A program made the position numbers and the translations under genes. Below, piece after piece: positions 15,640 to 43,650 of a stretch of 64,000 nucleotides of DNA (position 1 is the stretch's first letter; the number at the start of each line of letters is the position of its first letter). The notes under the pieces were generated by a model, which did not search any database, was not told the origin of the DNA, and was given only the letters and a program-made list of their open reading frames with translations. The DNA is from Dehalococcoidia bacterium (GTDB lineage: Bacteria; Chloroflexota; Dehalococcoidia; Bin125), in assembly GCA_965242485.1 (NCBI GenBank), contig CBDESM010000003.1, forward strand, positions 1,819,759-1,883,758. The letters run 5' to 3'.

Positions 15640-16233
15640 ATGTCCCGTCTGCCCAAACTGACCCACGACGAGCTCGACGATGATCAGCGCGCCCTCTGGG
15701 AGCACCTCACGACCGGCCCGCGCGCCAATCCCGACCGCCCGCACGGCGGCCTCACGGACGACGACGGCGCGCTCACCGGTCCCTTCAACGCGCTGCTCTA
15801 CTCGCCCAGGATCGGCGACCTCGCCCAAGAACTCGGCGGCGCGCTCCGCTTCGGCACCTCCCTCCCGCGCGACTTGCAGGAAATCGCGATCTGCGTCGTC
15901 GGCGCGCATTGGCGGGCCAACTTCGAGTTCTGGGCGCACGCCCGCATGGCCGTCCAAAACGGCGTCCCCCAAGCCGCCGTCGACGCCATCCAGCGCGGCC
16001 GCCGCCCCGATTTCGACGACCCCCGCCAGGAAACCGCCTACGCCTTCGCCGCCGAGCTGATCAACCACCGCCGCGTCCGACAATCCACCTACGACGCCCT
16101 CGCGGAACTCGTCGGCGAGCGCGGCGTCTTCGAACTCACCAGCACCATGGGCTACTACTCGATGGTCTCCATGAGCCTCGACGTCTTCGAAGTCGGCACT
16201 CCCCCCGGCGTCGATCCTCCCTACCCTGACTGA
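15640..16233 (+). CDS. Carboxymuconolactone decarboxylase (AhpD-like) family protein
   Basis: 197 aa. The CMD-like core is LQEIAICVVGAHWRANFEFWAHARMAVQNGVP. It starts 10 nt after the CoA-transferase stop. Confidence 0.75.
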   Translation: MSRLPKLTHDELDDDQRALWEHLTTGPRANPDRPHGGLTDDDGALTGPFNALLYSPRIGDLAQELGGALRFGTSLPRDLQEIAICVVGAHWRANFEFWAHARMAVQNGVPQAAVDAIQRGRRPDFDDPRQETAYAFAAELINHRRVRQSTYDALAELVGERGVFELTSTMGYYSMVSMSLDVFEVGTPPGVDPPYPD

Positions 16234-16244
16234 AGGAGCCCGCC

Positions 16245-16916
16245 ATGACCACTCTCGTCGCAGATCCGGCCGCCGACCCTGCCATCGATCCTGTCGAGGC
16301 TGCCATCGCCCGCGTCCTTGCCGACAACTGCACGACCAGCGCCCGCCCCGCCTGCCCGATCAGCGAGGACTACCTGCTCGAACTCCAAGCCCGCCACGAA
16401 GGCATCTGGTGCGAAAGCACCGCCGATGGGGAAGTGGTCGTCAGGGGCGTGTCCGATCCCGCGACGTCGGTCGGCGAAGGCTCGCTCATAGCGCAGGTCC
16501 GCGAAGCGGATCTCCTGCCCGGACTCGGCGCGACCCGCGGCGGCAGCGGCGGTTTCCAGATCGAAGGCTGCGGCTTCAAAATCCCCGACGTCAGCTGGAT
16601 CAGCCATGAGCGCGAGCGGGCCGCCTGGCAGTCCGGCAAGGCCTTCCGCGTCTATCTCCCCGCCGCGCCGGAATTCGTGATCGAGGTCAGCTCGCCCAGC
16701 GACAGCCTCACCGCGCTCCGCGAGAAGATGGTCGGCTGGACCACGCACGGCGTCCTCCTCGGCCTCTTGGTCGACCCCCGCTACCGCAACGTCCACATCT
16801 ACCGCGATGGCGAGGAACAGCACGTCCTGCACGCTCCCGACGCCGTCTCCTGCGAACCGGAGATGCCCGGCCTCGTCCTCGACTTCACCTACATCTGGCC
16901 CCTCTTCGACGAGTAA
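16245..16916 (+). CDS. Uma2-family endonuclease-like protein, paralog B
   Basis: 223 aa. It contains ...YLLELQARHEGIWCE...PDVSWISHER...PEFVIEVSSPSDSL..KMVGWTTHGVLLGLLVDP and is colinear with 8515-9174. Confidence 0.85.
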   Translation: MTTLVADPAADPAIDPVEAAIARVLADNCTTSARPACPISEDYLLELQARHEGIWCESTADGEVVVRGVSDPATSVGEGSLIAQVREADLLPGLGATRGGSGGFQIEGCGFKIPDVSWISHERERAAWQSGKAFRVYLPAAPEFVIEVSSPSDSLTALREKMVGWTTHGVLLGLLVDPRYRNVHIYRDGEEQHVLHAPDAVSCEPEMPGLVLDFTYIWPLFDE

Positions 16917-16925
16917 GATCACGCC

Positions 16926-17591
16926 ATGGTCACTGCCGTCCGCCCTGAAGTCCCCGTAGAGGCCATCCGCGAGGCCGAGCGGCGGCTCGATCGGGACTGC
17001 GGCGAGGTCCGTATTCCGCTGCCGTTTCCCATCACCAGCGAATTCCTCGAAGAGCTCAGCATCGAGTATGAGCTCCTGCGGTTCGAGGCCTCAATCGAAG
17101 GAGAGTTGATCATCAGCGGCGCAACCCTTGGCTGGATTCCCGACATCAACCGACTGCTGACGATTCAGCTGAGTCTCTGGATGGAGCTCGGCGCGCTTGG
17201 CGCAGCCGCCGGCACCGACCGCGGCTTCCATCCGCCCGGCTGGTCCTCGCGCGTTCCCGACGTCAGCTGGCTCTCCCCCGAAACCGCTGCCCGCGCTATC
17301 GGCCGCGGCCTGCCCCGCGGCTACTGGCCCGTCGCGCCCGACTTCGTGATCGAGACCAAGTCGCTGACCGACTCGCTGGCGCGGCAGCTGGAGAAGACGC
17401 AGGGCTGGGCCGACCATGGCACCGCCCTCGCGCTCCTCGTCGACCCGGGCGAGCACGCCGTCTACCTCTGCCGGCCCGGTCGGCCCGCGGCCGTCCTGAT
17501 CGATCCGCGCGAAGTCTCCTGCGAACCGGAGATGCCCGGGCTCAGATTCGACTTCACCCGCATCTGGGAACTGGCCGACCTGCCGGCCTGA
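16926..17591 (+). CDS. Uma2-family endonuclease-like protein, paralog C
   Basis: 221 aa. It contains ...FLEELSIEYELLRFE...PDVSWLSPE...PDFVIETKSLTDSL...GWADHGTALALLVDP and starts 9 nt after paralog B. Confidence 0.85.
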   Translation: MVTAVRPEVPVEAIREAERRLDRDCGEVRIPLPFPITSEFLEELSIEYELLRFEASIEGELIISGATLGWIPDINRLLTIQLSLWMELGALGAAAGTDRGFHPPGWSSRVPDVSWLSPETAARAIGRGLPRGYWPVAPDFVIETKSLTDSLARQLEKTQGWADHGTALALLVDPGEHAVYLCRPGRPAAVLIDPREVSCEPEMPGLRFDFTRIWELADLPA

Positions 17592-17711: not shown

Positions 17712-17748
17712 TTGACACTAGACCCCCCCCCCCCGCGTTAATTATCCT
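17712..17748 (+). promoter_or_regulatory. Promoter-like region containing a C12 homopolymer
   Basis: TTGACA lies at 17712-17717. An uninterrupted C12 tract lies at 17723-17734. A/T-rich -10 candidates are TAATTA (17739-17744) and TATCCT (17743-17748). The spacers of 21-25 nt are longer than the optimum. The site is 46-82 nt upstream of the ATG at 17794 (RBS GGAGG). Confidence 0.4.
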
Positions 17749-17793
17749 CAGATATCCGATCCGCGATGTCGGCGCGGGACGCTGGAGGTCACG

Positions 17794-20700
17794 ATGATTG
17801 AGCACTTTTCCGGGCGTGGCGCGCTCATCCGCCGCGCACTGCAATTCACGGCGGCTGCCGCCGTGCTCGGGGCCGCCCTCTTCGCGCTCGCAGCGCCCGC
17901 GCCCGCAGACGCGCAGACCACCGCCGTCAACGCCAACGCCATCGTTTGGGCCCAGCGGCTCGACGACGAGACGGGCGAGCCCATCGATCTGACCCGCGGC
18001 TACTGGCGCTGGCCCTTCGTCAACCGGTTCGAGACGACCGAGGTCGAAACCCTCAAAGTCCGCGTCTACCTGCTCAAGGACACCCGCGACAACGACGGTA
18101 CGGCGCCCTCGCCCAGCGATTACGCCTCCTACGGCGACTTCAGCTCCATCTGGCTCACGCTCAAATCCGCTGCCGGCGGCGGCATCTTCGGCAACCCCCT
18201 GACCACCGCCTCCCTGAAGAACAAGGACGGCAGCGCCGACCTGACCACCGGCGGCAACAACGCGTATCAGAGGAGCATCTCCCCCGCCGTCTGGCACCAG
18301 AACACGGCCGGCTACGTCAGCGGCGCGGCCACCCCGGGCGCCACTGACCGGGTCCAGCCCATCGACATCACCATCGACTTCGGTTCCGGCGGCCTCGGCC
18401 AGAACAACTTCTTCCTCTACACCCGCAAGAACTGCCACAACCCCTGTTCCGGCGGCACCGGCCGCGACAAGGAGTACGAATGGAAGCTCCCCCACCGCGT
18501 CACCGGACTCGGCTGGGGCATGTTCGCTCGGCTCAACGGCGCCACCCCGCCCCAACCCGTCCTCAACGCCGACGGCCAGGCCGCTTGGGACGACATGCAC
18601 TACCTCAACCAGAACGCGGACACGACCCTCACGGTCCGCTTCTACTTCAAGAAGACCGACCCCGACAACCTCACCCTCCGCCCCAGCAAGCCGAGCGACC
18701 CGGACGCCACCTACGCCGACATGGCTTTCGGCCACAGCGTCTACCTCTACCGAGGCGAGACCAACGTCGGCATGACCGGCGTCCGCTACTACAACGTCGG
18801 CACCAACACCCGCTGGGTCGGCTGCAGCAACAGCGGCACGCTCCACGAGTGCCACATGAACAAGGCCACCCTCAAGACCGCCGCCGGCGCGTCGGCCGAC
18901 ACTGAAGAGTCCGACGAGGTCGTCCCCGTCGACTTCGACGTCTTCATCCCCATCGCCGCCGGGGTGGGCGTGGGGGACTACCCGGCCGTCCGCTTCTTCG
19001 GCCGCGGCGGCACCGACTCGAGCCTCGAATCCGGCGGCAACCGCTTCCCGCACGCACTGGGCATGATCAAGCGCCCGACGCTCGACCTGCACCACCGCCG
19101 CAACACTTGGGACCGCGGCGAATCCACCTGCACCCACGGCTACGTCGCCGCCGACACGGCCGCGACCGAAACTGCCGAGCAGCTCGCCGTGATCACTTCC
19201 GACTCCGCCGGCGGCTCGCTCGCCCACAACTGCGGGAGCCTCTCCATCGCCCCGGGCCAGTCGGCCTTCCTCGGCTTCTGGGCCGGCTTCGCCGGGCCCG
19301 ACGCCCACCCGCAGGAATACCTCTGGAACCGCCACGACAAGACCCGCGTCTACGGCTACCGCACCACTCACGCGATGCGCATCCGCGAGTTCGACCGGAT
19401 CACCGTCACCAACAGAGCTGGCTCCTTCGGCATCTCCACCCGCTGCCCCCAGCACAGCTATCTCGATGCTCCGGAAGACCGCTTCTACGACGCCGAGTGG
19501 CCCAAACCGCGCACGCGCGACGGCATGGGCTCCTGCACCGCCACCTCCGTCGCCTGGTACAACGGCGACGCCGAGCGCGCCGCCGGCACCGGGCACGTCG
19601 GGCCCGCCGGGCTCGGCCACATCACGCTCTACCCCACCGACTTCCTCACGGGCACCGCCACCCTCAGCGCCACCGCCTACGGCACCGACCGCGACGGCGA
19701 CGGCGAGCCCGACTGGACCGCGACCGACGAACTCGGGGTCGCGTTCGACTCGTCCAAGAGGACCGTCTCCGCCTCCGACACCTTCGTCGACGGCGAGACC
19801 GACAACTCCCCGCTGGCCGCCTACGTCAGCCGTTCCGACTACAACGGCATGATCTCCCTCAAGGTCGGCCGCCTCGAGCGCCACGCCTTCCCCATCTTCC
19901 CGCAGAAACCCGCCGACCGCGAAGGCGGGCAGCCCTACGCCAGCGTCGCCGAACTCGCCGCCGCCGGCGCCGGCGAGCTGACCTGGCAGGAGGGCCGCAC
20001 CAAGTTCGGCGAGATTGGCGAGTCGCGCGGCGAAGTGCTGGACGGCCGCTACCTCGGCCTCGTCCTCTTCAGCAACCTCGCCGAAGAGGAAGCCGTCCGC
20101 GTCACCGTCAACCGCGGCGTCGTCTCCCACGAAGGCGAAGCCTGCACGGCCTCGGACGACGGCTGCACGCTCAGCCTCAGCCGCGCCGAACTCATGACCA
20201 GCCGCGGCCGCGGCGCATCCGGCGAGGTCGGCGCGGATGACAACGAACCCTTCGTGATCAGCTACCTCGACTACGCGCCCGCCGGCACCGGCCCGGTCAC
20301 CTTCACGGTCCAGGCCTTCCCCGACGACGACGCCTGGCCCGTCGCCGATCCGACCACCTACACCGAAACGGTGCCCACGTTCGATTCCCTCAGCGTCCGC
20401 GCCCTCCTGCTCGACGCCGACGGCGTGCTCGACCCGGGCGACGTCACCGGCGTCACCGTCGGCATCGAATCCGGCGGCCCGACCAGCGCGGCCGGGAACG
20501 CGCTGCTGCTCAACCTCGTCGTCGGCGACGGCATCTACGAGTCCGCGATCGTCAATTCACGGGGAGGCCTGAGCGGCTACGCCAACACGGCCGGCTCCGG
20601 CGCCCTGCACGATTTCTCGAGCGACTCCTACCTCGTCATCAACGGCCCCGCCACCTGGCCGGAGAACGGCGGCAAGCGCCTCCCGCTCGGCAGCGGCAGC

Positions 20701-22362
20701 ACCTTCAGCAAGCTCACCTGCATCTCCACCAACGATCTCGACTCCGGCATCGCCGACGCAGACGCCGCCACCTGCTACGTGGTCGACGCGAACGGCGCGC
20801 GCCCCGAGCTCGCGGTCGACTCCGACGCCGCCGACGGTTCCGACATCACCATCTCCGCCAGCTTCACGGCCGGCCTCGACGGCTTCACCATGGCCCACTG
20901 GCCGGCCGACCTCGACCTCGGCCCCCGCGCCTACCGGCTCGCGTCCGAAGCCTTCGGCTCCGCCACCTTCAGCGTCAAGGACGTCCAGCAGCTGAGCAGC
21001 ATCAGCTTCGGCCGCAAGCCCGCGGCCGACGGCAACGTGCCGAGCGGCCCGATCCGGATCAACGGCAGCGACGGGATCCGCCTGGCGCTGCTGAACGAGG
21101 ACGGCAGGGCCACCCGGCTCGACGCGGTCTCCGCGATCACCGTGACCGTGATCGGCGGCGGCACGCTCACCGGCCTCGGCTGCACCGCGCTCTCCAGCTG
21201 CACCTTCGCGGCCGACGAAGGCCCCCTCTTCGACGCCGCCGAGGCCAACCCGGCCAAGACGGCGCAGATCGACCTGACCTTCAACGCGCCCAAGGATCCG
21301 GGCCGGGCCACGATCGAGGCGACCGTGGTCGGCATCGACGGCATGACCTTCGCCGAGCGGCTCGTGCTGACCGTCTCCGGCTCCGCGGCCGAGATCGCCA
21401 GCAGCGGCGAGATGCCGCGGGTCCACTCCTCGGCCACGACCGACGACGACCGCGACGAGATCAAGATCCCGATCAGCGCCACCGACGCCGACGGCAACGC
21501 CGCGCGGATGCCCGCCAACGCCGCCGCCACGGTGCGCGGCATCGACGGCGCAGTCGTCTCCGCCGGCCGCCTCACCTCCCAGGTCAGCTGCACCGACGAG
21601 GGCCGGCTGAAGTGCAACCTCGAGATCACCGTCACCGCGCCGGCCGGCACGCCGCTCGCCTCGGGCGCGTACACCGCGACCATCACCGGCAGCGGCATCG
21701 GCAGCACCGAAGTCGGCTTCGCCGTCGGCGGCCCGGCCGAGAAGATCAGCCTCGCCGTGCCCGGCACCGCCGACCTGCCCGGCCTGGCCGGCAGCTTCAC
21801 CGCGACCGCGCGCGTGCTCGACAAGGACGACGTCCCCGTCGCCGACGGGACCTGGGTTGCGTTCGACACGACGGCGGCGAGCGGCGGCGCGGAAAGCGCG
21901 ATCGTGACCCGCCCGCCGCTCTCGGACCACGACAACGACACGACGACGGATGACGTGCGCCGCGCGCAGACCAAGAACGGCGAAGCAAGCGCGACCGTCA
22001 CCATCGTCGCCAACGGAATCGCGATCCTCACCGCGACGGTCGGCGACAAGACGGCCAACGAGCCGATCGACACCCGCGCGGAGACGACGGGCGCGGCGGC
22101 GCCGGCCGATGCCGGGCCGCCGCTGCGCTTCGGCACGGCCGACGGCGCGGCCGCGACCGGTTCGCTGGCGACCTGGGCCAGCAACCGGCAGGGCGACGCC
22201 CGCCAGGCGCTGGAGCAGGTGCCCGGCGCGAGCATCGTCTGGCTCTGGAACGGGGTCGAGTGGATCCGCTGGGGCGTGACCGAGGACGGCACGCGGATCC
22301 CCGGCTCCACCAGCTCGCCGTTCGTCATCCTGCAGGGCGACCGCATCTGGTTCGCCAGCTGA
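17794..22362 (+). CDS. Giant secreted protein (1522 aa): unknown Cys/Trp-rich N-terminal half, then Ig-like (Big_1/invasin-type) repeats and a small C-terminal beta domain
   Basis: The signal peptide is ...AAAAVLGAALFALAAPAPADA-QTT. A calcium-type DRDGDGEPD motif is present. The C-terminal half has repeats such as ISATDADGNAARMP...TVTAPAG and ARVLDKDDVPVADGTWVAFDT...ASATVTIVANGIAILTATVGDK. The tail is IVWLWNGVEWIRWGVTEDG...VILQGDRIWFAS. Confidence 0.85.
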   Translation: MIEHFSGRGALIRRALQFTAAAAVLGAALFALAAPAPADAQTTAVNANAIVWAQRLDDETGEPIDLTRGYWRWPFVNRFETTEVETLKVRVYLLKDTRDNDGTAPSPSDYASYGDFSSIWLTLKSAAGGGIFGNPLTTASLKNKDGSADLTTGGNNAYQRSISPAVWHQNTAGYVSGAATPGATDRVQPIDITIDFGSGGLGQNNFFLYTRKNCHNPCSGGTGRDKEYEWKLPHRVTGLGWGMFARLNGATPPQPVLNADGQAAWDDMHYLNQNADTTLTVRFYFKKTDPDNLTLRPSKPSDPDATYADMAFGHSVYLYRGETNVGMTGVRYYNVGTNTRWVGCSNSGTLHECHMNKATLKTAAGASADTEESDEVVPVDFDVFIPIAAGVGVGDYPAVRFFGRGGTDSSLESGGNRFPHALGMIKRPTLDLHHRRNTWDRGESTCTHGYVAADTAATETAEQLAVITSDSAGGSLAHNCGSLSIAPGQSAFLGFWAGFAGPDAHPQEYLWNRHDKTRVYGYRTTHAMRIREFDRITVTNRAGSFGISTRCPQHSYLDAPEDRFYDAEWPKPRTRDGMGSCTATSVAWYNGDAERAAGTGHVGPAGLGHITLYPTDFLTGTATLSATAYGTDRDGDGEPDWTATDELGVAFDSSKRTVSASDTFVDGETDNSPLAAYVSRSDYNGMISLKVGRLERHAFPIFPQKPADREGGQPYASVAELAAAGAGELTWQEGRTKFGEIGESRGEVLDGRYLGLVLFSNLAEEEAVRVTVNRGVVSHEGEACTASDDGCTLSLSRAELMTSRGRGASGEVGADDNEPFVISYLDYAPAGTGPVTFTVQAFPDDDAWPVADPTTYTETVPTFDSLSVRALLLDADGVLDPGDVTGVTVGIESGGPTSAAGNALLLNLVVGDGIYESAIVNSRGGLSGYANTAGSGALHDFSSDSYLVINGPATWPENGGKRLPLGSGSTFSKLTCISTNDLDSGIADADAATCYVVDANGARPELAVDSDAADGSDITISASFTAGLDGFTMAHWPADLDLGPRAYRLASEAFGSATFSVKDVQQLSSISFGRKPAADGNVPSGPIRINGSDGIRLALLNEDGRATRLDAVSAITVTVIGGGTLTGLGCTALSSCTFAADEGPLFDAAEANPAKTAQIDLTFNAPKDPGRATIEATVVGIDGMTFAERLVLTVSGSAAEIASSGEMPRVHSSATTDDDRDEIKIPISATDADGNAARMPANAAATVRGIDGAVVSAGRLTSQVSCTDEGRLKCNLEITVTAPAGTPLASGAYTATITGSGIGSTEVGFAVGGPAEKISLAVPGTADLPGLAGSFTATARVLDKDDVPVADGTWVAFDTTAASGGAESAIVTRPPLSDHDNDTTTDDVRRAQTKNGEASATVTIVANGIAILTATVGDKTANEPIDTRAETTGAAAPADAGPPLRFGTADGAAATGSLATWASNRQGDARQALEQVPGASIVWLWNGVEWIRWGVTEDGTRIPGSTSSPFVILQGDRIWFAS

Positions 22363-24548: not shown

Positions 24549-25670
24549 TTACCGCCCCTGTTCGACGGTCCAGGCCCGCACCGACAGCACCGCCGCCAAG
24601 TGCGTCCGCAGCGTCGTCCAGCTCTCCCCCGCGTCCGCGCTCGCCAGCAGTTCGCCCCCGCTCGTGCCCAAATACAGCCCCAGCGGATCGCCGCCGTCCG
24701 TCCCCAGCGCCTGCCGGTACACGGTCTGGTGGAAATCGGACTCCGGCAGCCCCCGCGTCAGCGGCTGCCAAGTCGCGCCCGCATCGCGCGTGCGGAACAC
24801 GACCAGCCTCCCCCCGCGCGGCATCCGCGCCTGATCCTGATCCAGCGGCACGAACCAGGCCGCGTCCGGATCGCGCGGGTCGATCGCCGTCGCGAACCCG
24901 AACTCGCCCGGCAGCCCCTCGCCCACGTCGACCCAGCTCTCGCCGCCGTCGTCCGAGCGGTACTGGCCCCAGTGGTTCTGCTGCCAGATCCGCTTCGCAT
25001 CCGCCGGATGCGCGTGCATCGAATGCACTCAATGCCCCGCCGTCTCCTCCGGGAAGAACTCCAGCATCTCCGGCGGCAGATGCAGCGCCTTCACGCCCAG
25101 GTTCCGCGGCGTCCAGCTCTCCCCTCCGTCGTCCGAGGTGTAGCAGCCCATCGCCGACCCGGCGATCGTCAGCCGGTCCGGATTCTCCGCATCCACCCCG
25201 ATGTGGTGCAGCGACAGCCCCGCCGCGCCGGCCATCCAGCCCCCCCGCGTCGGATGGTTGAGCAGGCTCTCGCAAAGCTCCCAGCTCGCGCCGTCGTCGC
25301 GGCTGATGAACAGCGCCGCCGGGTCCACCCCCGCGTACAACTCCCCCTCGCGCCCGCCCGGCTCGATCGTCCACACGTTCCGCACCGAATCCCCGCCCCC
25401 GTCCGCCTCCACCGATGTTCCCTCCGGAAACGCCGGCGTCCCCGCCTCGTCCCAAGTCGCCCCGCCGTCGTCCGAGCGGTGCAGCCGCGGCCCCCACTGT
25501 TCGTGCGACGCGCCCGCCCAGAGCGTCCCCGTCCTCGGATCCCGCATTGCATAATCCACCTGCCAGCCCGCGATCGCCAGCGGCTGCCACTCCCACTCCG
25601 AACGTCCCCCGCGGCTGCGCCCGATCACCAGCCCCTTCTTCGTGCTCGCCAGCACTCCCGCCTCGCTCAT
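24549..25670 (-). CDS. BNR/Asp-box six-bladed beta-propeller (sialidase-like fold) interrupted by an in-frame TGA at 25029-25031. It is either a Sec candidate or a pseudogene/split gene.
   Basis: Track ORFs 25029-25670 and 24549-25028 are contiguous in one frame. There are six Asp-boxes: RSDDGGATW, SRDDGASW, TSDDGGESW, then the TGA, then RSDDGGESW, TRDAGATW, SADAGESW. RBS GGAGGAG precedes the ATG at 25670, which overlaps the upstream stop (ATGA). Confidence 0.75.
24996..25012 (-). promoter_or_regulatory. Hairpin 3' of the in-frame UGA (SECIS-like candidate)
   Basis: The mRNA reads UGA-GUGCAUUCGAUGCAC-G-CGCAUCC-GGC-GGAUGCG. The second stem has 7 bp and its loop G is about 24 nt after the UGA. 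A first 6-bp hairpin abuts the UGA directly (25028-25014). Confidence 0.3.
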
Positions 25671-29396: not shown

Positions 29397-29654
29397 ATGC
29401 CTTCCCCCGAAGCCGTCCTCGAGATCGAAGTCGTCTACTGCGCCGACTGCGGCTACTGGCCCCGCACCGCCTGGATGCTCGGCGAGCTCCTCACCGACAT
29501 CCAGCACCTCGTCAAGTCGGTGCGCCTGGTCCCCGACTCGCTCGGCCTCTTCGAGTGGAAAGTCAACGGCGACCTCGTCTTCAGCAAGGCCGCGATGGGC
29601 CGCTTCCCCGAAATGGACGAACTCCGCGAACTCATCTACGCGCATCTTGACTAG
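29397..29654 (+). CDS. Rdx (SelW/SelT/SelH-like) family protein, CxxC (Cys) form
   Basis: 85 aa. LEIEVVYCADCGYWPRTAWMLGELL...VRLVPDSLGLFEWKVNGDLVFSKAAMGRFPEMDEL matches the Rdx pattern (IxYCxxCxW..RA.W...EL...P...G.FEV...G.L..SK...GRFPE). It starts 4 nt after the LLM stop. Confidence 0.85.
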   Translation: MPSPEAVLEIEVVYCADCGYWPRTAWMLGELLTDIQHLVKSVRLVPDSLGLFEWKVNGDLVFSKAAMGRFPEMDELRELIYAHLD

Positions 29655-31771: not shown

Positions 31772-32302
31772 ATGGCCGCAACCGTCACCGTCCTCGACCC
31801 GCAGGCGCATGTCGCCGTCCGCGAGGCCTCCGCCGCGCCCCGGCTCCAGTCCCTTCAGGGACTCCGCCCCGGCATTCTCGAAAACCGCAAGGCCAACGCG
31901 CGGCTGCTGATGGAGACGATGGTCGACGGCCTCCGCGCCCGAACCGAGCTCGGCCCGCTCGTCGTCGGCTCCAAGCCGGTCGCCGGCCCGCCTTCCGCAT
32001 CCACCATTGCGGCCCTCCGCAACGACGCCGACTTCCTCCTGATCGGCTCCTGCGATTGAGGCTCCTGCACGACGTGGAGTGTCCACGCCGCCGTCCTCTT
32101 CGAAGGCTTCGGAATCCCCACCGTCACGATCGGCACTTCCGCCTTCACCGATCTGCTCCAGCTCGAAGCCGAACAGCGCGGCCTGCCCGAGCTCCGGCGC
32201 ATCATCGTGCCCCATCCGATCGGCGGCCTCAAGCCCGAAGCGATCGGCGGCAAGGTCGGCGGAGACGTGATCGACCAGCTGCAAGCGGCGCTCACCGAAT
32301 GA
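31772..32302 (+). CDS. Candidate selenoprotein, 176 aa with Sec at codon 96 (D-U-G-S-C, a UxxC motif)
   Basis: Track ORF 31772-32059 ends in a TGA, but the frame stays open for 80 more codons: ...DADFLLIGSCD[TGA]GSCTTWSVHAAVLFEGFGIPTVTIGTSAF...DQLQAALTE. High GC3 is maintained and the tail has no start or RBS of its own. The final TGA (32300-32302) overlaps the next ATG (32299). Confidence 0.7.
32071..32090 (+). promoter_or_regulatory. SECIS-like hairpin 3' of the UGA at 32057
   Basis: The upper stem pairs 32073-32077 (CGUGG) with 32083-32087 (CCACG), with apical loop AGUGU. A possible lower G:C pair (32071/32088) leaves A32072 bulged. The hairpin starts 12-14 nt after the UGA. Confidence 0.35.
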
Positions 32303-33363
32303 GCGCCCCCGGCCGCCCCGCCGCCGAGTATTCGCTGCCCGCCGACCCGTTCGATTTCCATCAGGAGGCGATCCGCCGCGGTTGGTCCGACGGGCTGCCG
32401 CTGATCCCGCCCTCGCCCGAGCGCGTCGACGCGCTGCTGGCCGCGGTCGACCGCGATCCGCTCGAGGTGCTCGCCGTGCTCGCGCCGCGCCAAGGCGAGG
32501 CGACCGTGCAGGCCGTCGCGATCAACGCCGTGATGGCCGGCTGCCGCGCGCAGCACTTCCCCGTCGTGCTGGCCGCCGTCGAAGCGATCAGCCGGCCGGC
32601 CTTCAATATCGACGGCATCAACGCCACGACCCATCCCTGCGCCGTCTTCATCCTCGTCAACGGCCCCGCGGCCCGCGCCGCGGGCATCCACGGCGGCGCT
32701 GGCTGCTTCGGCCCGGCCTTCCCCGCCAACGCCGCCATCGGCCGCGCCGTGCGGCTGGTCCAGCTCAACGTCGCCGGCGCGACCCCCGGCCGCGGCGACC
32801 GCGCCACCCAGGGCAGCCCGGCCAAGTTCGCCTTCTGCGCCGCCGAGCGGGAGGACGCCAGCCCCTGGCCGCCGTTCCACACCACGCGCGGTCTCGCGCC
32901 CGAACAGTCCGCCGTCACCGTCTGGGCGGCCGAGGGCCCGCACAACATCCAGGAACATGGCAGCAACGCCGGCGAGGACATCCTCAAGACCGTCGCGGGC
33001 GCGATGGGCCAGGCGGGCAGCAACAACATCCTCGGCAAGGGCGAACCGGTCCTCGCCTTCGGCCCCGAACACGCCGCCACCGTCGCCGAAGGCGGGTACT
33101 CGCGCCGGGACGTCCAGAACTACCTCTGGGAAAACGCCCGCTACCCCGCCGCCAAGCTCTCGCCCGAATTCCTCCGCGAGGTCAACGTCCGCATGGCCGG
33201 CGGCAACCTCCCGCCCCACGAGCCGGACGAGGAGCTCCCGATCAGCGACAAGCCCGAGGAGATACACGTAATCGTCGCCGGCGGCCCCGGCAAGCACAGC
33301 AGCTGGATGCCCACCTTCGGCGGCCTCACCCGCCCCGTCACCGTGGAGATTCCCGCGCGTTAG
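32299..33363 (+). CDS. Conserved-looking hypothetical protein (354 aa), translationally coupled to the Sec-candidate gene
   Basis: MSAPGRPAAEYSLPADPFDFHQEAIRRGWSDGLPLIPPSPERV...INAVMAGC...GINATTHPCAVFILVNGP...GSPAKFAFCAAE... has globular composition and high GC3. It is the C-terminal 354 codons of the 658-aa track ORF 31387-33363. I recognise no family. Confidence 0.7.
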   Translation: MSAPGRPAAEYSLPADPFDFHQEAIRRGWSDGLPLIPPSPERVDALLAAVDRDPLEVLAVLAPRQGEATVQAVAINAVMAGCRAQHFPVVLAAVEAISRPAFNIDGINATTHPCAVFILVNGPAARAAGIHGGAGCFGPAFPANAAIGRAVRLVQLNVAGATPGRGDRATQGSPAKFAFCAAEREDASPWPPFHTTRGLAPEQSAVTVWAAEGPHNIQEHGSNAGEDILKTVAGAMGQAGSNNILGKGEPVLAFGPEHAATVAEGGYSRRDVQNYLWENARYPAAKLSPEFLREVNVRMAGGNLPPHEPDEELPISDKPEEIHVIVAGGPGKHSSWMPTFGGLTRPVTVEIPAR

Positions 33364-41618: not shown

Positions 41619-42284
41619 TTGGCGCTGCTGCGGATAGTAGTGTGCCGTGCGGAGGCGATGATGGTGATTTCGCGGCTGTTCCGGCGCGGTCCCGGCTTCG
41701 CCGAGCGGAGCGCGGAGCTGGCGGGGCTATTCACGGCGCGGGGCGTCGCGGCGTCGCCGGCGGAGCAGGATGCCAAGCGGCGCGGCGAAGAGCGGGTGGT
41801 CGCCGGTGCCGATCTGGAAGGCCAGCCCGTCTCGTCGGCAGAGCTGGTCGAACTGTCCGGGCGGGGGATGCACGGGGGGGAGCGCCGGGTGACGGGCCTG
41901 CACGGCTACGTGGCGCTTGACCTGCTCGCGGACGGCTGGCCGCGCGATTGGGACGAGGGGCTGGTCCGCTCCCGCAGGGTTTTCCCGAGCACCGGGCTGG
42001 GGCAGGCGCGCGACGCCGAGTGGGAGCCGTCGGAGCCGTCGGCCACGGCCGCGCGCCGTGCCGCCGAGCTGCTCAACGGCAGCGCCGGCCTGCATGATCG
42101 GCTCTTGGCTCTGCTGCGCGATTCCTCGGTGATCGACTGCCGGATCGCGCCGCACCGCGACTGGCTGCGGCTGTCGATCTACCGCACCGGCGAGACGCCG
42201 CTCGGCGCGGATGCCGATTTCCTGCTGCTCTGCGGCCGCGTGCTGGCGGAGGGGGAGGGATTCGAACCCCCGGGACGCCAGTGA
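41619..42284 (+). CDS. Hypothetical protein; its 3' end overlaps tRNA-Ser on the opposite strand
   Basis: 221-aa ORF with strong GC3 bias and protein-like composition (...HDRLLALLRDSSVIDCRIAPHRDWLRLSIYRTGE...). The last 13 codons are encoded by the complement of the tRNA. I recognise no family, and the start is uncertain. Confidence 0.4.
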   Translation: MALLRIVVCRAEAMMVISRLFRRGPGFAERSAELAGLFTARGVAASPAEQDAKRRGEERVVAGADLEGQPVSSAELVELSGRGMHGGERRVTGLHGYVALDLLADGWPRDWDEGLVRSRRVFPSTGLGQARDAEWEPSEPSATAARRAAELLNGSAGLHDRLLALLRDSSVIDCRIAPHRDWLRLSIYRTGETPLGADADFLLLCGRVLAEGEGFEPPGRQ

Positions 42285-42335
42285 CGCCCAACGGTTTTCA
42301 AGACCGCCGCCATAAGCCGCTCGGCCACCCCTCCG
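42245..42335 (-). tRNA. tRNA-Ser (anticodon UGA)
   Basis: On the reverse strand the sequence is GGAGGGG-TG-GCC..GGC-GCGGT-CTTGAAA-ACCGT, a long variable arm, GGGGG-TTCGAAT-CCCTC, then CCCCTCC-G-CCA. It is 91 nt with an encoded CCA. Confidence 0.93.
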
Positions 42336-43529: not shown

Positions 43530-43616
43530 GTCGGACGGGTGGTACCGGGAGAGGGACTCGAACCCCCACGGCCCTGAGGCCAGCTGATTTTAAGTCAGCC
43601 GCGGCTGCCAGTTACG
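43530..43616 (-). tRNA. tRNA-Leu (anticodon UAA)
   Basis: On the reverse strand the sequence is GCCGGGA-TG-GCG..CGC-G-GCTGA-CTTAAAA-TCAGC, a long variable arm, GGGGG-TTCGAGT-CCCTC, then TCCCGGT-A-CCA. It is 87 nt. Confidence 0.93.
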
Positions 43617-43650
43617 CCATCCCGGCACGTATGGGAACGATATCGGCTCA

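Follow-up and report, generated by a model that had tools for sequence, protein, structure and literature searches.

The reading frame at positions 31772-32302 (+ strand) of the window, by which we mean the whole 64-kb stretch of DNA analysed here, is best explained as one gene for a 176-residue selenoprotein of the UGSC family. In this reading the in-frame UGA at 32057-32059 is recoded as selenocysteine (Sec) through a SelB-type SECIS hairpin, and the product is predicted to adopt a flavodoxin-like fold and proposed to serve as a redox subunit together with the protein encoded immediately downstream; we put the probability of this explanation as a whole at roughly 0.9. That the TGA encodes selenocysteine in a member of the UGSC family is almost certain. 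The signal is regarded as real because a family match runs at full length over both halves of the gene, because the TGA and the open frame behind it are kept in 61 related loci, and because the hairpin carries evidence from both covariation and codon choice. The finding is correct but not new, since the family goes back in the literature to 2007, when it was described as a selenoprotein of unknown function (PMC1976440), and is named in RefSeq.

A UGSC family gene with an in-frame TGA

The initial annotation of this DNA had described a 95-codon open reading frame that ends in TGA and is followed by 80 further open codons. Sequence and translation bear this out: the frame runs from an ATG at 31772 through the TGA at 32057-32059 and then through 80 open codons to the stop TGA at 32300-32302, which gives a gene of 176 codons with Sec at codon 96 and the read-through product ...LIGSCD*GSCTTWSVHAAVLFEGFGIPTVTIGTSAF.... 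The overlap with the next gene, whose ATG at 32299 shares its letters with this stop as ATGA, is present as had been noted, and so is the strong G/C bias at third codon positions downstream of the TGA, the GC content at codon positions 1/2/3 being 0.76/0.56/0.86 upstream and 0.70/0.47/0.85 downstream. The statement that the downstream half has no start codon or ribosome-binding site of its own stood in part. Inspection of the sequence after the TGA found no ATG and no obvious Shine-Dalgarno motif, and the sole start-like codon in frame is a late GTG at about codon 50. The further argument that coupling to the next gene works only if ribosomes pass the TGA did not generalize; it is specific to the window, for in the syntenic relative L117 the UGSC gene and its neighbour lie 369 nt apart.

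None of these local features is decisive. By a rough estimate, an open frame of 80 codons at 70% GC has a chance of about 0.2 and is thus unremarkable, so the case for the gene rests on comparative evidence. TGA is also the commonest ordinary stop codon in the window, with 21 of 40, which means that the recoding of UGA at 32057 is local.

We compared the 176-residue product, with U written as C, to the profile libraries. It matched the Pfam family PF24696, "UGSC family", at 137.1 bits (cut-off 25), with residues 6-175 aligned to profile positions 1-171 of 172, so that the match spans both sides of the TGA. The product also matched the NCBIfam model NF041046 with 103.4 bits (E 1.1e-29, residues 30-175). 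The name of this model, "UGSC family (seleno)protein", is the RefSeq product name that the initial annotation had mentioned, and it is also the source name of the homologues P0243, P0256 and P0272. The window protein scores below the curated equivalog cut-off of NF041046 (125 bits), which is the naming threshold of one narrower model and not a family-defining feature, and is clearly homologous nonetheless.

In a search of 5.8 billion proteins, about 55 of 65 matches were fragments of 96-97 residues that stop exactly at the TGA. These truncated entries come mostly from metagenome-assembled genomes of Dehalococcoidia/Chloroflexi, and the full-length relatives from the same search carry D-C-G-S-C-T at the position of the TGA. 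A profile search yielded hundreds more full-length Cys forms, some of them named "UGSC family (seleno)protein" by NCBI. The Cys forms are single proteins of 170-190 residues. At the conserved column the window reads D-[TGA]-G-S-C-T where homologues read D-C-G-S-C-T, a motif that is invariant or nearly so. Full-length homologues with Cys aligned at codon 96, which the initial annotation had asked to be looked for, therefore exist, and its central proposal of a selenoprotein gene with a U-x-x-C motif agrees with the almost invariant Cys in this column and with the TGA found there in 61 related loci.

Compared with the described UGSC-containing selenoprotein family (PF24696; NF041046; representative ABI76733.1 from Hyphomonas neptunium), the window gene is a full-length HMM match with U-G-S-C at the same column. 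Nothing essential differs; the copy is set apart by its score against NF041046 (103 vs 125 bits) and by lying in a genome of 70% GC that looks Dehalococcoidia-like. Sec forms far outnumber Cys forms in the family as published (PMC1976440, PMC2398784, PMC13188914), and UGSC is one of the selenoprotein families met most often in aquatic metagenomes, the GOS data containing 255 Sec forms as against 21 Cys forms (PMC2398784). A 2026 review still lists it as functionally uncharacterised (PMC13188914).

The partner gene and a proposed two-component enzyme

The gene that begins in the ATGA overlap (32299-33363, + strand) encodes a protein of 354 residues, hereafter the partner, which belongs to an unnamed conserved family. 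We found at least 4834 clusters of homologues, often 60-90% identical, and none of them contains a Pfam domain save the fusions to UGSC. The partner itself gave no Pfam or NCBIfam match even at E<=1, and sequence searches of the PDB returned no significant match for the partner or for UGSC. In Conexibacter and Methanobacterium its RefSeq label is "hypothetical protein".

We gathered 80 metagenome loci with the partner gene as the only bait. A UGSC HMM match lies beside the partner in 73 of these loci, and 5 of the 7 loci that have no such match are short of flanking sequence on at least one side; L051 and L078 have room on both sides and carry the partner without UGSC. A second set of 36 loci was selected by UGSC and consists of Cys forms only, because the pattern of the genome scan contained Cys; it covers Methanobacteria, Archaeoglobi and Conexibacter. 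Here the partner is present in 33 of the 36 loci by tblastn and in all 36 by clustering. The two genes occur in either order and are fused in frame in 14 of the 61 loci with a Sec form, and fused proteins are also found in the database (P0143, P0174, P0179). UGSC and the 354-residue partner are thus a near-obligate pair in bacteria and archaea, sometimes fused. Fusion of UGSC to a second conserved domain is on record as well, in the form of a "UGSC/Unknown_1" fusion reported in the GOS data (PMC2398784), and the window's partner is likely this "Unknown_1", to judge by the description of the fusion. One of the database fusions, P0179 (565 aa, from an ENA metagenome), is a full UGSC-partner fusion with Leu at the Sec/Cys position (GTAN-L-GSCT) and Leu also at partner position 136.

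A neighbourhood search found no third gene consistently linked to the pair. TctC receptors (11 loci), SDR proteins (7 loci) and thioredoxin-reductase-like (TrxR-like) flavoproteins (6 of 80 loci, within 5 kb) occur as sporadic neighbours, and the neighbours seen in methanogens reflect synteny at the species level.

Residues of the partner that are conserved across bacteria and archaea comprise D31, C82, R149, D167, K176, C180, E183, N216, H220 and H258. C136 is not conserved, and because it is Ala in 46 of 81 loci, the idea of an Fe-S cluster held by three Cys residues was dropped. A confident AlphaFold2 model of the partner (pLDDT 87.6, pTM 0.89) gave weak Foldseek matches in the PDB, with TM <=0.26, to class I fumarate hydratase and to Toblerone-fold hydrolases, which we treat as leads only.

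The fold of UGSC was modelled on P0001, a Cys-form homologue 48% identical to the window protein, with 52 aligned homologues. The AlphaFold2 model (pLDDT 93.4) consists of five beta-alpha units, and in it Cys97 immediately follows strand 3 (89-95) and occupies the N-cap position of helix 3 (98-113). The top 50 Foldseek matches in the PDB were flavodoxin-like, CheY-like and Rossmann-like, with TM 0.4-0.5, and none of these 50 has a thioredoxin fold. The prediction for UGSC is accordingly a small (beta-alpha)5 domain of the flavodoxin-like kind and not a thioredoxin-like one. The remaining invariant residues (N38/K40, E111/G114/P116 and H148/P149) come after strands 1, 4 and 5, which suggests that together with the Sec they form one active crest.

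Among the alternatives, the one that survives best accepts a genuine selenoprotein and lets it act alone, as a thioredoxin-like thiol-disulfide oxidoreductase whose adjacency to the partner is a matter of operon economy. Such a role would suit a U-x-x-C at a helix N-cap, as is typical of thiol oxidoreductases, and would suit L051 and L078, where the partner occurs without UGSC; a Trx-like fold was indeed proposed for the family in 2008 (PMC2398784). The structure prediction does not support that proposal, since the top Foldseek matches were flavodoxin-like structures in place of thioredoxin folds for a model that is all-parallel (beta-alpha)5. Moreover, the adjacency spans Methanobacteria to Dehalococcoidia, occurs with the genes in either order and includes natural fusions, a pattern that is a classic signature of physical or functional coupling. 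We therefore consider a stand-alone oxidoreductase unlikely and prefer a coupled pair.

As a working model of this coupled pair, the two proteins would make up a two-component enzyme. UGSC would be the subunit with the redox-active selenol or thiol, and the 354-residue partner, co-transcribed with it and in some cases fused to it, would be the other component, with its two conserved Cys and its conserved charged and His residues. The U-x-x-C motif would cycle through a selenenylsulfide between Sec96 and Cys99, which might be re-reduced by a thioredoxin-reductase-like flavoprotein of the kind encoded beside the pair in some loci.

We also examined the loose resemblance to the reductase selenoproteins GrdB and PrdB that had been suggested earlier, and it found no support. 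PF07355 (GrdB/PrdB) matched neither the window protein nor any of 52 UGSC members at E<=1, and PF09338 was found in 1 of the 52 at E 0.013, which is not significant. Likewise, GrdB does not appear among the Foldseek PDB matches of the P0001 model (a library that may hold no solved GrdB/PrdB structure), the partner has no match to Gly_reductase, and no grd or prd genes lie nearby. On the Pfam results, relatedness to GrdB/PrdB is not supported. What UGSC and the GrdA/GrdB/PrdB proteins have in common is a small selenoprotein with a Sec...Cys pair and a larger, separately encoded catalytic protein, PrdB being also listed as UxxC (PMC2398784); the sequence relationship is undetectable, and the likeness is one of mechanism only. 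Thioredoxin/TrxR systems and Trx-fold selenoproteins (SelW/Rdx, Prx-like) resemble UGSC in the redox dyad at a helix N-terminus and in the TrxR-like gene that accompanies 6 of the 80 loci. In contrast to these thioredoxin-fold proteins, the fold predicted for UGSC is flavodoxin-like.

Conservation of the TGA and of a SECIS hairpin

In 61 of the 80 loci selected by the partner alone, UGSC has a TGA at the Sec column, and in 3 it has Cys. The frame behind the TGA stays open for at least 77 codons in all 61 TGA loci. The TGA is also kept in L117, the syntenic relative, which lies on a 3.17-Mb contig and whose neighbourhood is 72-80% identical to that of the window at the nucleotide level. We found 40 Cys-form genes for comparison.

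A hairpin lies directly behind the UGA at 32071-32089 (+ strand), corresponding to nt 15-33 when the U of UGA is nt 1, and its apical loop G23 U24 G25 is at 32079-32081. We aligned the 48 nt after the UGA from 55 distinct sequences. The consensus is a helix of 8 bp in which nt 15-22 pair with nt 26-33 around the loop G23-U24-N25. Across these sequences 96.4% of the cells are paired and 6 of the 8 pairs show compensatory changes, such as G-C replaced by C-G in 9 sequences; none of 500 shuffles reached the observed values, and sliding the 3' partners reduces pairing to 17-53%. The base changes are coupled across codons, as where Trp is replaced by Cys or Gly along with the replacement of Ile or His by Val or Leu. 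The Sec forms have a mean of 7.7 of 8 pairs and the loop GU in 55 of 55, as opposed to a mean of 4.1 of 8 and the loop GU in 2 of 40 in the Cys forms. The Cys forms thus encode much the same peptide yet do so without the SECIS hairpin.

In the window itself the hairpin has 7 of the 8 pairs, the exception being an A16.C32 mismatch, and its core of 6 bp runs from C17-G31 to A22-U26 around the loop G23 U24 G25. The stem begins 13 nt past the UGA. A hairpin with the apical loop AGUGU starting 12-14 nt behind the UGA, as first described from the sequence, is therefore present, the loop reading AGUGU when the closing A-U pair is taken as unpaired. The Ser codon in the loop, AGT, is used once among the 409 Ser codons of 16 confident window genes, and only 0.04% of synonymous recodings combine a GU loop with 7 or more pairs (p 0.0004). 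The folding free energy of the hairpin is unremarkable (z = +0.7), a single-sequence measure that is not informative at this GC content.

The upper helix and the loop resemble those of the E. coli fdhF SECIS, in which the loop bases G23 and U24 are determinants of, and contacts for, SelB. Both elements lie in the coding sequence directly 3' of the UGA, with an upper helix that starts at nt 15 (an 11-nt spacer) and with G23 and U24 in the loop, and the geometry of the fdhF type that had been proposed is thus confirmed; the fdhF sequence used for comparison was itself verified at 100% identity inside E. coli fdhF. The UGSC hairpin differs in that its 8 bp are continuous, with no bulged U17, and in that its loop has 3 nt (G-U-N) in place of 4 (GGUC). 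A covariance-model search, which the initial annotation had proposed as a check, was negative in the UGSC region, with no match to any Rfam SECIS family at the gathering score or at E<=10.

Two side observations concern the hairpin in other loci. L056 (4722, 10509), L077 (4217, 6869) and L079 (70, 2725) each contain two UGSC-partner pairs, of which the second has a UGSC of a separate subtype, GD-U-GSCSSGSVL, whose SECIS pairing is kept through compensatory changes. In L001 (6283-6330; Conexibacter sp. CPCC 206217), a Cys-form UGSC retains 8 of 8 hairpin pairs and uses AGC, not AGT, for the loop Ser; the hairpin looks like the relic of a SECIS left by a recent change from Sec to Cys.

These comparisons bear directly on the possibility that the gene is a pseudogene or an assembly error, in which a Cys codon (TGC or TGT) has mutated to TGA or been misread as such and at most a 95-residue N-terminal fragment is made. 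A single substitution turns TGC into TGA, gene callers split all such genes, and the Sec machinery was not seen in the window, all of which would fit. Decay or misreading is nevertheless difficult to reconcile with a TGA in 61 independent metagenome loci and in L117 with the downstream frame open in all, with a covarying hairpin in the TGA forms only, and with the rare AGT codon kept in its loop, and we regard it as highly improbable. Least probable of all are two genes, that is, a 95-residue protein followed by an independently initiated C-terminal fragment or by an untranslated spacer before the partner: the L117 annotation does split UGSC into pieces of 95 and 59 aa, and a GTG does stand in frame late in the second half, but the Pfam domain is a single unit over both halves, the predicted fold needs strands from both because the TGA falls between strand 3 and helix 3, the Cys forms are single proteins, and the second half offers neither ATG nor Shine-Dalgarno motif.

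Probable selenocysteine decoding and a second candidate in the window

We searched the 64-kb window for the Sec machinery and found no tRNA-Sec; a scan of about 40 ORFs likewise gave no selA, selB or selD. For this particular genome, Sec decoding is accordingly an inference. Related loci in which the machinery and the UGSC-partner pair are found together support it indirectly. In L063 and L064 the neighbours of the pair are tRNA-Sec (6774-6868 in L063; 6026-6120 in L064), a thioredoxin-reductase-like flavoprotein, selB at 437 bits (cut-off 242) and selA at 579 bits (cut-off 268), the adjacent ORFs extending to about 10416, and in L100 selB adjoins the pair.

Two tRNA genes of the window on the - strand are a tRNA-Ser with a UGA anticodon (42244-42334) and a tRNA-Leu with a UAA anticodon (43540-43626); neither is a tRNA-Sec. 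The window also contains a SelT/SelW/SelH (Rdx) gene in CxxC form, VVYCADCGYW, at 29409-29654 (+ strand; TIGR02174, 60 bits). In the window UGSC follows 2 kb downstream of this Rdx/SelW-family gene, whose counterpart in L117 (8807-9058) lies directly upstream of UGSC. Elsewhere in the window are a 1546-codon ORF at 17722-22362 (+ strand) with a GC3 of 0.94 and no Pfam or NCBIfam match, and two tandem Uma2-family genes (PF05685, putative restriction endonuclease) at 16230-17591 (+ strand), in the same frame with a TAA between them.

Additionally, a BNR/Asp-box repeat gene on the - strand (24549-25670) has an in-frame TGA at 25029-25031. Its 213-codon and 159-codon ORFs, with GC3 values of 0.90 and 0.92, join to 373 aa. 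In the syntenic L117 orthologue a Cys stands at the position of the TGA (AAGH-C-IHSMH), and the widely conserved "GQCVH" Cys of the family aligns there too. P0326 and P0438, representatives of 50%-identity clusters, end exactly at this column. Two hairpins follow the UGA, the second of which is absent from the Cys orthologue. Judged from sequence, the gene may be a second selenoprotein of the window; the TGA could also be a simple nonsense mutation of TGC to TGA. No BNR selenoprotein was found in the 2026 selenoproteome review (PMC13188914) or in a literature search. The candidate, if real, would also support Sec decoding in the window's genome.

A broader picture, which we hold tentatively and at somewhat less than even odds, is that UGSC and its partner constitute a widespread (seleno)enzyme, either of two subunits or fused, whose range extends from Methanobacteria to Dehalococcoidia. 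The fold of the partner would lack a clear counterpart in the PDB, and UGSC would contribute the catalytic or resolving selenol. The picture includes, as a separate matter, the BNR gene as a possible second selenoprotein whose UGA replaces the conserved "GQCVH" Cys.

The selenoprotein call itself is routine, given that Pfam, NCBIfam and reviews already cover the family. Gene callers routinely split its members, as they do here, and the practical outcome is that 31772-32302 should be annotated as one Sec-containing gene. What remains of interest is the unnamed partner family and the function of UGSC. For this abundant family the analysis provides a testable handle, namely an almost obligate partner, a defined SECIS and a likely reductant.
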